DNA from: Octopus sinensis
Taxonomy: Eukaryota
DNA length: 64,000 bases
Reading direction: 5' to 3'
Assembly: GCF_006345805.1 (NCBI RefSeq)
Contig: NC_042998.1
Coordinates: forward strand, 19,592,001 to 19,656,000
Within the stretch, counting starts at the first letter, position 1. The number at the start of each line of letters is the position of its first letter. The notes under the pieces were generated by a model that was not told where the DNA came from, did no database searches, and saw only the letters and a program-made list of their open reading frames with translations. The translations under genes and the position numbers were made by a program. This document shows positions 2,280 through 14,700 of this stretch, piece by piece.

Positions 2280-2423
2280 AACATCGAAAAATACCTTAGG
2301 TTCGATTTTTCCCCAAGACACTTGATGAAAGCGGGAGGGTATATCAGCCGGAACGTTGTGTTAACAAACAAGACGAGGACAAGTAAATAATGTACATAAT
2401 TCCACATCTCTTAAATATAGAAG
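2280..2423 (+). mobile_element. Degenerate H1 element copy (HHR remnant 2317-2362)
   Basis: gacac-ttgatga-aagcgggagggtatatcagcc-ggaacgttgtgtt, followed by tail aataatgtacataattcc..aaatatagaa matching 13795-13942. Confidence 0.75.
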
Positions 2424-3890
2424 TGTATTATGTGTTGAGTTCAAACTCCACCGGATTTGATTTTCTATTCATCTTTAAGGGGTCGACGAAAGAATTAGCA
2501 TTCGAGCACTAGGGGTGGTGTAGTCGACTAATCCACCCCACCCCCTAAATGTTCAGGCATTTTGCATATCGTAGGAAGTACTATGCTTGGTTTTGTTTTT
2601 GTATTGTTGTTCTGTTCGGTTATTGTGGGAGTTGTATAGTGCCGAAGCTGAACATGTCTGAGAAGTTCCGTGTGTTTGCGACTTGTTTGCCTTTCTATAA
2701 TCTGTTTTTGATTACTTTACTTTTCTGCTTTGTGTCTTGAAACAATTCGTTCTTTTATTCTACGGGGCAAAATGTTAAAACAAAGTAAATTTTTCGAAAA
2801 AATAAAAAATTTCAAAATCGCGTGGTCTTTGTCATTAACTCAGGAAGGTTATGGATTATCAAGGTGAAAACATTTTTTTCGCATTCACCTCCTTCTACAA
2901 AAGATTAGAGATCTAGCAGTAATTAAAAACAGTAGGGACAACAACAACATTATCAATTTGAACAATAACCTCGATAGTAAGAACAACAAAAACATTGACA
3001 TGTCAATCAAAGTTGCTCGCAAAAAACCACCGGGAGCAGATTATCGTGCATTGAAAACACTCATAGCATCAATCTGTTAAAAGTACAACCGAAATAATCT
3101 CTAGCACCTGATCCAACTCCAGCACCACCAAATCAATAAAAAGTAATTACGGTAGAAACAACGAAAATAATAATAACAACAACTGTTGTGAAAGCACTGT
3201 AAAATTATTTCTTTATCAAGATAAGTTAGTCTTCAGTTCTCATCGTACTAGAGATAAATCACATGAATATTAGAGGAGGTGGAGAACCATATGAATGTAC
3301 TCTAACAGAGAAAAGGGATACTCAAGGTAATGTCACTAAACAGAAAGGAAAACAAATCTTTATCGATACGTATAGCGGAAGGTACAAATTAGTGTTTTCG
3401 CCTTCGGATGAAGCTGAGCTCTGTGCACGAAACATACCGCAATACAGTACATTTGTGTGATATGCCTATAAGCCCCAATATATTCAAGTTATGTTCCAAT
3501 GGAAAACTACAACCTAGGAGTACAGAACCATCCCCGAAAACAAGAATTTGAGATTTAACATAAAATCGATTTCCCATGGAAAGGGATCTCATTAAATTTT
3601 CCAACCTTAGGACCAGAATTAATCTCCGGATTGTTTTAGATCCTAGTACACTTCTAAAAATTAAAGAAATTTAGGAAACATAATTGTTTTGGGATGTTGT
3701 TGGATCCTATGATTCAGATGAAAACTGAAACGCAAGAAAAAAAAACTTAAGCATATCCCAGGATGGCTGCAACTGTGAGAGATATTGGAATGTAGAATGC
3801 ATTAATGCTATAACTGAGGGAACACTAACCACCTAAATACCTCTGGGTCCAACACAAGAAAATAATATCTGAAAGATACCATGCAATATT

Positions 3891-11659: not shown

Positions 11660-11690
<31 letters not shown>

Positions 11691-12541
11691 AATAAAAATA
11701 TAAATTTTAATATAAATAATAATAATGATAACAATGATAATAATAAAAATATAAATTTTAATATAAATAATAATAATAATAATAATGATAATAATAAAAA
11801 TATAGATTTTAATATAAATAATAATAATAATAATAATGATAATAATAAAAATATAAATTTTAATATAAATAATAATAATGATAATAATGATAATAATAAA
11901 AATATAGATTTTAATATAAATAATAATAATAATAATAATGATAATAATAAATATATAAATTTTAATATAAATGATAATAATAATAATAATAATAAAAATA
12001 TAGATTTTAATATAAATAATAATAATAATAATAATGATAATAATAAATATATAAATTTTAATATAAATGATAATAATAATAATAATGATAATAATAAAAA
12101 TATAGATTTTAATATAAATGATAATAATAATAATAATGATAATAATAAATATATAAATTTTAATATAAATAATAATAATAATAATAATGATAATAATAAA
12201 AATATAGATTTTAATATAAATAATAATAATAATAATAATGATAATAATAAATATATAAATTTTAATATAAATGATAATAATAATAATGATAATAATAAAA
12301 ATATAGATTTTAATATAAATGATAATAATAATAACAATGATCATAATAAAAATATAAATTTTAATATAAATAATAATAATAATAATGATAATAATAAATA
12401 TATAAATTTTAATATAAATAATAATAATAATAATAATGATAATAATAAAAATATAAATTTTAATATAAATAATAATAATAATGATAATAATAAATATATA
12501 AATTTTAATATAAATAATAATAATAATAATAATAGTAATAA
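11660..12541. repeat. AT-rich minisatellite, about 20 units of 39-45 bp
   Basis: Unit (aat)n-gat-aataataaa(a/t)atata(a/g)attttaatataaat. Unit lengths vary in steps of 3 nt. Confidence 0.95.
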
Positions 12542-12969: not shown

Positions 12970-13277
12970 TGCACGGTTTACGTAACTGAATTAAGAAAAT
13001 ACGGTAAAATTACAGATTAACACCCGCACGATTTTCACTAAGAAAAAAAAATCGGATCTTTTGCGTGGAATCAAGTACCCTGACCTCCTAATATGCTGGA
13101 AATCCCATATTTTGGTTCGGAATTGTTCCGGAAGGGGAGTAACTCCCCCCCCCCCCGGAATTTTCACACCAAAAAGAACTTTGATTTTTTTTTTTTTTAG
13201 TGAAAATCGTGCGGGTGTTAATCTGTAATTTTACCGAAAATACTTTCGGTTCAGTAAAATACGAAAAACGTTGCACG
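12970..13277. mobile_element. Foldback/MITE-like element with about 100-bp imperfect inverted arms
   Basis: cggtaaaattacagattaacacccgcacgattttcactaa (13002-13041) is inverted at 13197-13236. Confidence 0.75.
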
Positions 13278-13470: not shown

Positions 13471-13756
13471 TAAACATTACTTACATTATTTTTATTTGAC
13501 GGATATTTGTCCTCATCTTGTTTGTTGTTAACACAACGTTTCGGCTGATATACCATCCAGCTTTCATCAGGTGTCTTGGGGAAAGTTTGGGCATATGGCG
13601 TTGTTGTTAAGTGCGCGGGATACTAACCCCAAGATTTCGAGTTCAATTCCAGGCAGTCACCTTAATAATAATAATAACAACAATGATGATAATAATAATA
13701 ACAACAATAATAATAATAACAACAATAATAATAATAACAACAACAACAACAACAAC

Positions 13757-13788
<32 letters not shown>

Positions 13789-13942
13789 TAATAACATCGA
13801 AATACACATTCGGAATGAGAATCCTGATGAAGGCTCTAGGGTATATCAGCCGAAAGGTTCTGTTAACAACGAACAAAATGAGAACAAATATCACCAAATA
13901 TAAATAATGTACATAATTCCTCATTTTTTAAAAATATAGAAC
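13471..13942 (+). mobile_element. tRNA-headed, HHR-bearing short retroelement (H1) with an inverted partial copy at its 5' end
   Basis: A-box-like TGGCGTTGTTG at 13596-13606 and B-box-like AGTTCAATTCC at 13640-13650, then (AAT/AAC)n, then a body with CTGATGA..GAAA (13824-13855) and a tail shared with 2280-2423. 13471-13588 is the reverse complement of the HHR/tail region. Confidence 0.65.
13530..13575 (-). ncRNA. Minimal type-I hammerhead ribozyme (family H1)
   Basis: Minus strand GACAC-CUGAUGA-AA-GCUGG(AUGGUAUA)UCAGC-C-GAAA-CG-UU-GUGUU. Confidence 0.75.
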
Positions 13943-14289
13943 TAGAAAGGGAAATACAAACGATGTGGCATCTTAAAGCGAGAACTGTTCCTGGTACTGT
14001 GGGTGCCCTTGGTAGGATGCAAAATGAATGTCAGAAATATCTAGATACTATCCCAGGAGAACCATGTCTCAGAGAAATCGAAAAGATTTTGCTGACAAGT
14101 CCTGCCCACATCCTTATAAAAACCCTATGAATTTAAATGTATGTGATATATTACGTGAAGATATTTCACTTCTGCCCATGTCACTTCTCCTCCCTAAGCT
14201 TTCAGTCATACTGTAAAATCACTTATCCTTCATTTTCCCTAAGACACTGGTTGTTTCTGGACAAGTGATTGTAATAAACAAGCAGATTA

Positions 14290-14700
14290 AAAGTAAATTT
14301 AGGGGTGGTAAGTGATCGACTGCTAATTCCTTTACCCAACCCGAAAGAATGAAAGGCAAAGGGGTCTTCAGTGGAATTAGAACTGAGAACATGAAGATAG
14401 ACGAAATGACGCTATGCATTCTTCGCGGCGTAGTAACGATTCTGCCAGTCTTAGGAATGTGTCTTTGTGTCAGCCTCTGCCCGCCTTAGTAACTTGACAA
14501 CCGATGCTAGTATGTTTAGTACACGAAATTTGCGGTTCAGAAAAAGGATCCATTACACTAAGTACCAAACTTTAAAAAATAGAAAAAAGAAAACGAAGTA
14601 GTGTGATTGATTCTTTCGACTAAAATTCTTCAAATCGGTGCCCCAGCATGGCCAGAATCTGATGACTGAAACAAGTAAATGATAAAAGCTGAAAGATAAT
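14290..14700. mobile_element. Degraded SINE A (minus, about 14290-14450) and SINE B 3' half (plus, about 14490-14700)
   Basis: Recognisable family motifs (gaatgaaaggcaaag; ccccagcatggcc..gactgaaacaagtaaa). Confidence 0.7.

Follow-up and report, generated by a model that had tools for sequence, protein, structure and literature searches.

We studied a 64,000-nt stretch of the Octopus sinensis genome (NC_042998.1, positions 19,592,001 to 19,656,000; hereafter the window), in which positions 13471 to 13942 had been described, in a preliminary description made from the sequence, as a short interspersed element (SINE) with a tRNA-like head, an (AAT)n spacer, a body carrying a hammerhead ribozyme and an inverted arm. 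All these parts were present at the positions named. The feature is a short, decayed head-to-head insertion of an abundant autonomous element of the Penelope/Poseidon type, and the apparent SINE is the pseudo-long terminal repeat (pseudo-LTR) of that element. The hammerhead and the insertion pattern are ordinary for a Penelope-like element (PLE); the new variant is the promoter region. The head is derived from tRNA-Arg(ACG) and is probably the element's own RNA polymerase III (Pol III) promoter, since the 5' ends of most copies that reach the head stop there and the sense strand has no TTTT terminator; from these two traits we infer the polymerase and the start site, the former as the preliminary description had also proposed. 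The case for Pol III transcription of the autonomous element is indirect but coherent.

Tallies meant to be unbiased used exact-motif loci in order of position, all from the first part of one contig (C1). Coding sequence for a GIY-YIG endonuclease was found upstream of several heads, and in 28 of 30 ORF-end loci the end of an open reading frame (ORF) led directly to the head, with 29 nt between stop codon and head; the exact 24-mer of the ORF-head junction occurred 365 times in the genome. On its other side the body continued in frame into the ORF (30 N-terminal loci), with the start codon at body position 23, so that the body corresponds to the first ~55 codons and the hammerhead lies within the first 30. 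The order of the unit is head, (AAT)n, ATG/hammerhead, reverse transcriptase (RT), GIY-YIG, stop, 29 nt, head. A minimal hammerhead within a pseudo-LTR was thus seen at both sides of the ORF: at the 3' side in the 28 loci mentioned, and at the 5' side in L201 and L216, the only two of the 30 N-terminal loci whose 5' repeat reached the head. Both begin exactly at the head, L216 with a fold-back. The 52 head-first and 23 ORF-linked copies had one consensus in common with no diagnostic positions, the single position at P<0.02 being a CpG. Because of the linkage to the ORF end, the in-frame body and this common consensus, we identify the SINE as a pseudo-LTR and reject an independent, non-autonomous SINE that borrows PLE machinery and has only its tail in common with a PLE. 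The autonomous PLE that the preliminary description had proposed to look for does exist; what it has in common with the short copies is the whole head-spacer-body unit and not the tail alone.

The consensus contains a single ORF of 829 aa plus a 6-aa start (~835 aa), with the RT followed by a C-terminal GIY-YIG domain that has a CxC and two His (CCHH motif). A natural fragment of the RT domain matched RVT_1 (E=2e-8), and the profile of the element's relatives matched TERT among solved structures. The natural GIY-YIG fragment itself had no Pfam match and aligned to the Pfam GIY-YIG region of P0022 with E=4e-17. Database relatives of the ORF were 57-72% identical, and the homologue P0012 (59% identity) kept the hammerhead-coded peptide at its N-terminus. 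Inspection of the consensus showed an RT-endonuclease linker without the extra Zn-finger, unlike Neptune and Nematis as defined in PMC8557442. The element is an endonuclease-bearing (EN+) PLE of the Penelope/Poseidon clade, a call made from the RT and GIY-YIG domains, the pseudo-LTRs with hammerhead, the inverted arm with its tail and the linker. Among 41 related PLE ORFs with enough downstream DNA (metagenome contigs, L221-L299), 29 showed a minimal-hammerhead-like motif 29-474 nt past the ORF match.

Head and body belong to one family, as had been supposed: a body on the same strand followed the head in all 29 other top head loci, at 250 nt or less in 26 of them and at 625-703 nt in three with an insertion in the tract, which rules out their chance juxtaposition in a microsatellite. 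Of 30 loci selected in order along the genome through an exact 24-mer of the head, 24 had a body within 1.5 kb, and the six misses were two fold-back stubs and four loci interrupted by other DNA, two of these by another retroelement inside the AAT tract. Invasion of this spacer by another retroelement was frequent (L010, L105 and L141, with similar inserts in L008, L022, L104 and L117); three of the inserts translate to the C-terminus of a restriction-like endonuclease, presumably of the Dong/R4 kind, and split head from body by 0.5-1.4 kb or more. In the 2.72-Gb genome, exact 24-mers of the hammerhead, the head and the ORF end were matched 5394, 1414 and 686 times, respectively, and the reversed control patterns had no match. 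Estimates from the exact-match fraction gave, roughly, ~33,000 hammerhead, ~7,500 head and ~1,900 ORF-end arms, in copies ~91-92% identical to the consensus. These copy numbers are uncertain because 330 kb of random DNA (33 stretches) contained no copy, roughly 2-4 being expected from the ~33,000-arm estimate.

The tRNA origin of the head was drawn from alignment with the genome's own tRNA-Arg(ACG) genes. A search for the T-arm motif gave 108 matches, most within one tandem array, and the five loci taken all contained tRNA-Arg(ACG) genes. The array (G000:C2:3121924-3157900, L301-L304) holds ~90 T-arm matches, mostly at 206 nt spacing, and the loci taken from it are intact genes. The head consensus was identical to these genes at 49 of 73 positions, with an alignment score of 71; 1000 shuffles scored 28.5 +/- 4.6 with a maximum of 47. 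The acceptor stem and the anticodon are lost, and ARAGORN and Rfam recognised neither the head nor the hammerhead. The A and B boxes agree with the consensus for such boxes. A second T-arm likeness was noted inside the start of the ORF, where a stretch of 11 nt within family body positions 30-41 matches the tRNA-Arg T-arm exactly and may form a second B-box-like motif. This stretch is deleted in the window's direct copy, is kept at window positions 2298-2310 and is joined by deletion to the head's own T-arm in at least L067.

Two features of the copies point to the head as a transcription start. In the first place, there is a pile-up of 5' ends: among 30 position-ordered copies running across the first base of the head, 24 stop no more than ~10 nt upstream, where ~6% would be expected per 10 nt (binomial P ~1e-24, from one contig and a rate based on six breaks), and the remaining six continue 39 to ~390 nt into the ORF. 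A script had classed seven of the 30 as ORF-linked; L104 was not counted because it scored 31 against 56-118 for the others and showed an inverted tail by eye. Many copies retain 2-7 leader bases. In the second place, the 2648-nt sense strand of the 2.65-kb unit has no TTTT (T4) run. A synonymous shuffle predicted a mean of 2.9 (P=0.027), a codon draw by base frequency 4.9 (P=0.003), and related PLE ORF segments 4.9-5.2 (P ~0.01; 62 segments, reduced to 50 by dropping 12 near-identical ones); all nine comparator segments of at least 2 kb had at least one T4. The 77 individual copies contained 0.50 T4/kb, against 0.55 predicted by neutral decay from a T4-free source, and T4 runs terminate the tRNA-Arg genes of this genome (4 of 4 inspected). 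The A/B-box pattern was found in none of the 41 related PLE 3' regions, 29 of which have the hammerhead-like motif. The simplest reading of the pile-up, the T4-free strand and the lack of A and B boxes in relatives is that the head is a promoter. That Pol III has some role at the head appears likely to us; that the head-first short copies come from an element whose own Pol III promoter reads the whole ORF is the best explanation at hand, and we give it an even chance.

Several observations weigh against such a promoter. The T4 deficit is modest (P 0.003-0.03) and concerns one family, compared with PLEs of other organisms and not of the same genome; G4 runs are likewise absent, with only ~1.3 expected. 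Full 5' repeats were observed in two copies only. In the 29 nt upstream of the head there is a resemblance to a decayed head copy in inverted orientation (P=0.0065), and a hairpin formed there could help to stop or fold the cDNA; this hairpin is weak, no more stable than shuffles (z +1.07). In RNA-seq of a related species (three runs and one contig set) there was no pile-up of 5' starts or ends, strands were balanced, and 79-84% of the reads ran into unlike DNA, a pattern to be expected if host transcripts run through copies of an old family. The processivity of Pol III on long templates is regarded as poor (PMC10886601), and Penelope of D. virilis has, in place of a tRNA-derived head, a LINE-type (long interspersed element) internal promoter with initiator and downstream promoter elements (Inr/DPE; PMC2377424). 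Moreover, a Pol III RNA would be uncapped, and its translation would have to be cap-independent.

The last of these points would not arise if Pol III made only short head-spacer-body RNAs while the ORF mRNA came from Pol II, in tandem arrangements or by host read-through. This alternative, in which the terminal repeat of the element itself gives rise to a SINE, is close to the preliminary description, and we judge it unlikely. It accounts for the 5' pile-up and for the ~4:1 excess of heads over ORF ends (~7,500 vs ~1,900, rough), and a solo long-tailed copy does have the promoter, the hammerhead and both priming sites. However, it leaves unexplained the T4-free ORF and the two ORF-bearing loci that start at the head, and independent SINE masters would be expected to leave some diagnostic positions between the head-first and ORF-linked copies, where there are none.

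We also think it improbable that an ordinary Pol II-driven PLE once captured a tRNA or SINE between its stop and start codons and that the head is the passive remnant of it, with the pile-up due to nascent cDNA folding back on itself at the small hairpin and the absence of T4 runs due to chance. The likeness of the leader to an old inverted head copy, the loss of the acceptor stem and anticodon, the absence of a start in RNA-seq and the 222 exact palindromes of the fold-back type, whose centres lie 1-2 nt upstream of the head, are in favor of such a remnant, but the majority of head-first junctions connect the head with the other arm or with the flank, at 0 to -7, and are not fold-backs. In addition, the hairpin is no better than shuffles, stalling would be expected at its 3' base inside the head, where ends are few and scattered, the A and B boxes fit the box consensus, and the lack of T4 requires a second coincidence. 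Finally, Pol II initiation at the tRNA-like boxes, or an RNase P-type cut of a longer Pol II transcript, would also produce a discrete 5' end, with capping permitted by a Pol II start, but is very unlikely, because the acceptor stem cannot pair, the 2-7 leader bases do not fit a cut that presumably falls at +1, and neither route explains the missing T4 runs.

If the head is the element's own Pol III promoter, the following cycle can be proposed. Starting 0-8 nt upstream of the head, Pol III would transcribe the 2.65-kb unit in full and continue through the 3' repeat until it meets the first T-run in the genomic DNA. If Poseidon of Anolis is taken as a model, the element's protein would nick both strands of AT-rich DNA, and reverse transcription would be primed at two internal sites that lie ~125 and ~160 nt inside the ORF sequence. 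ORF-bearing copies would result from priming in the 3' repeat, whereas priming at the identical sites near the 5' end of the RNA, or on the RNA of a short copy, would run off at the head and give SINE-like copies. Two cDNAs would then be end-joined, sometimes via a fold-back at the small hairpin, into an inverted pair. As for translation, the A-rich tract of the element may, speculatively, aid its cap-independent form. The complete scheme, in which an autonomous coding element has its 2.7-kb, T-run-free mRNA made by Pol III from a captured tRNA-Arg promoter, translates it cap-independently and sheds SINE-like copies via internal priming near the 5' end, is a tentative one, to which we give somewhat less than an even chance.

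The insertions themselves followed the Penelope pattern and not that of LINEs, in agreement with the preliminary description. Head-to-head body pairs were present in 46 of 112 non-duplicate loci. Two alternative 3' ends were found, ~35 nt apart, and in 42 of the 46 inverted pairs the long and the short end were on opposite arms, the one-sided tail of Penelope; the window's pair agrees with this asymmetry. PLEs are known to have a one-sided tail of 30-40 bp (PMC8557442), which has been attributed to priming at two internal sites with extension of both strands (PMC11167929). Target-site duplications of at least 8 nt occurred in only seven of 62 solo loci, against two of 62 controls, with one clear case of 13 nt (L050), and LINE-type insertion was rejected on this tally. 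Short inverted tails sought at solo copies were found in 2/62 (controls, 1/62) and are not general. Copies were solo or head-to-head, without the head-to-tail tandems that define retrozymes and Sm-alpha, so that identity with a tandem retrozyme was rejected as well.

The ribozyme part is ordinary and in nothing different from known minimal type-I PLE hammerheads. It has the CUGANGA / GAAA / UH core, helices I and II and a palindromic helix III; the core pattern was intact in 43 of 92 copies, and core position 7 was the only subfamily-level variant in it (U 74, A 16). The fold was no more stable than shuffles (z -0.37), and no RNA-seq read of the related species ended at the predicted cleavage site. 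Minimal hammerheads of metazoans show weak cleavage, and do so as dimers (PMC4209133); insertion in vitro did not depend on cleavage in the one PLE so studied (PMC11167929). For the present hammerhead, activity is predicted only as a dimer or with help from a protein, and insertion need not require it.

At the window locus the inverted arm is a 5'-truncated body copy (body positions 40-151) at 13475..13587 in the negative strand, 92% identical to a family copy; the arm ends at the short 3' end and lies head-to-head with the direct arm. It contains the better-preserved hammerhead, as had been noted: an intact minimal type-I motif at 13530..13575 (negative strand, read from 13575 to 13530) with CUGAUGA, helix II, GAAAC-GUU and a 5-bp helix I, which fits the minimal hammerhead features of PMC4209133 and has its predicted cleavage site between 13535 and 13534. 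The remaining parts are in the positive strand. The tRNA-Arg(ACG)-derived head occupies 13589..13662, without the acceptor stem, with the A box at 13596-13606 (two changes relative to the family consensus) and the B box at 13640-13650. It is followed at 13663..13792 by the (AAT)n/(AAC)n spacer, which is variable in length and belongs to the element as the 5' untranslated region of the ORF; TRF delimited the tract as 13663-13794. The direct body, 13793..13943, is the 5' end of the PLE ORF, with the start codon at 13815-13817 and, from 13824, a hammerhead core damaged by a 25-nt deletion that takes the 5' strand of helix I and by a GAAAC to GAAAG change. The Penelope-type tail (as in PMC8557442 and PMC11167929) is found at 13910..13943, on the direct arm only. 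This copy is dead. The second body copy that had been noticed, at 2280..2429 in the positive strand, is an independent insertion of the family that follows a CAT tract; truncated in the spacer and lacking a head, it has deletions of 14, 3 and 13 nt, different from those of the first copy, and a damaged hammerhead with two core changes.

Comparison with known systems showed the closest likeness to the Penelope clade. Poseidon_Ac of Anolis has a single ORF with RT plus GIY-YIG at its C-terminus and a pseudo-LTR that overlaps the ORF start (PMC11167929), and, as elsewhere in the clade, a hammerhead in the first codons, an inverted 5'-truncated arm and a 30-40-bp tail at one end (PMC11167929, PMC8557442). 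In contrast to the clade, the gap from stop to start codon is taken up here by an AAT tract and a head of tRNA origin that has A and B boxes, the copies show a pile-up of 5' ends at this head and the sense strand is free of T4. In metazoan PLEs, minimal type-I hammerheads (Cervera and de la Pena 2014, PMC4209133) likewise have a 5-bp helix I, an extra base between 9 and 10.1, G10.1-C11.1 and a palindromic ACGU replacing helix III, and occur mostly in solo truncated copies.

Short repeats that join a Pol III-type promoter to a hammerhead are known from schistosomes as Sm-alpha/Sj-alpha (PMC6765202), but those are non-coding, often tandem, with monomers freed by cleavage, whereas the octopus unit forms the terminal repeat of an element with coding capacity and is inserted solo or head-to-head. 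The TRIMp3 elements Cassandra, Helenus and Ajax also have a small RNA-derived Pol III promoter within a terminal repeat; they are non-autonomous LTR elements of 0.3-1.3 kb whose autonomous partners are expected to use Pol II (Kojima 2024, PMC10886601), while in the octopus family the promoter-like part sits in the autonomous element. Non-LTR retrozymes are short hammerhead-bearing derivatives of PLE terminal repeats as well, yet they are defined by head-to-tail tandems and circular RNA, and the excerpts of both sources mention neither a tRNA head nor Pol III (PMC7229834; bioRxiv 10.64898/2026.07.22.740005). Within the literature searched, no PLE with a tRNA-derived promoter was found, and Pol III promoter use was described only for short non-coding elements; the family may be present in Repbase, Dfam, SINEBase or the PMC13282606 library under a Penelope or SINE name.

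Indeed, the short copies could have been catalogued as SINEs. The tRNA-derived octopus SINEs OK, OR1 and OR2 were reportedly described by Ohshima and Okada in 1994 and are said to be of tRNA-Arg origin. By this description, they possibly have the same tRNA-Arg ancestry. OR1 and OR2 are listed as CORE-SINEs (PMC4824008, PMC4758252), and the present family has no room for a CORE domain because the head runs straight into the AAT tract. Repeat annotations are likely to list copies of the element partly as SINE and partly as Penelope.

A tRNA promoter ahead of the ORF of a PLE, if true, would matter beyond this family. To our knowledge, autonomous retroelements are assumed to be transcribed by Pol II (or by Pol I read-through), and Pol III promoters are assumed to be confined to short non-coding passengers; the element would break this division and pose a testable question of cap-independent translation. 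SINEs could also arise from it directly, with no separate fusion event needed. Genomic copies alone would mark where the RNA of a PLE has its 5' end, and the two-site priming seen in vitro finds confirmation on tens of thousands of natural insertions, by the rough copy estimate.

Other repeats were noted around the insertion. At window positions 13001-13240 there is a near-perfect inverted repeat of ~40 nt, with arms ~150 nt apart, which resembles a miniature inverted-repeat transposable element; among the fetched loci it was matched only by those overlapping the window. An AT-rich minisatellite with a 51-bp unit (17.6 copies, 90% matches) extends over 11661-12541, and a different abundant repeat, matching 39 of the fetched loci, lies at 14290-14500.
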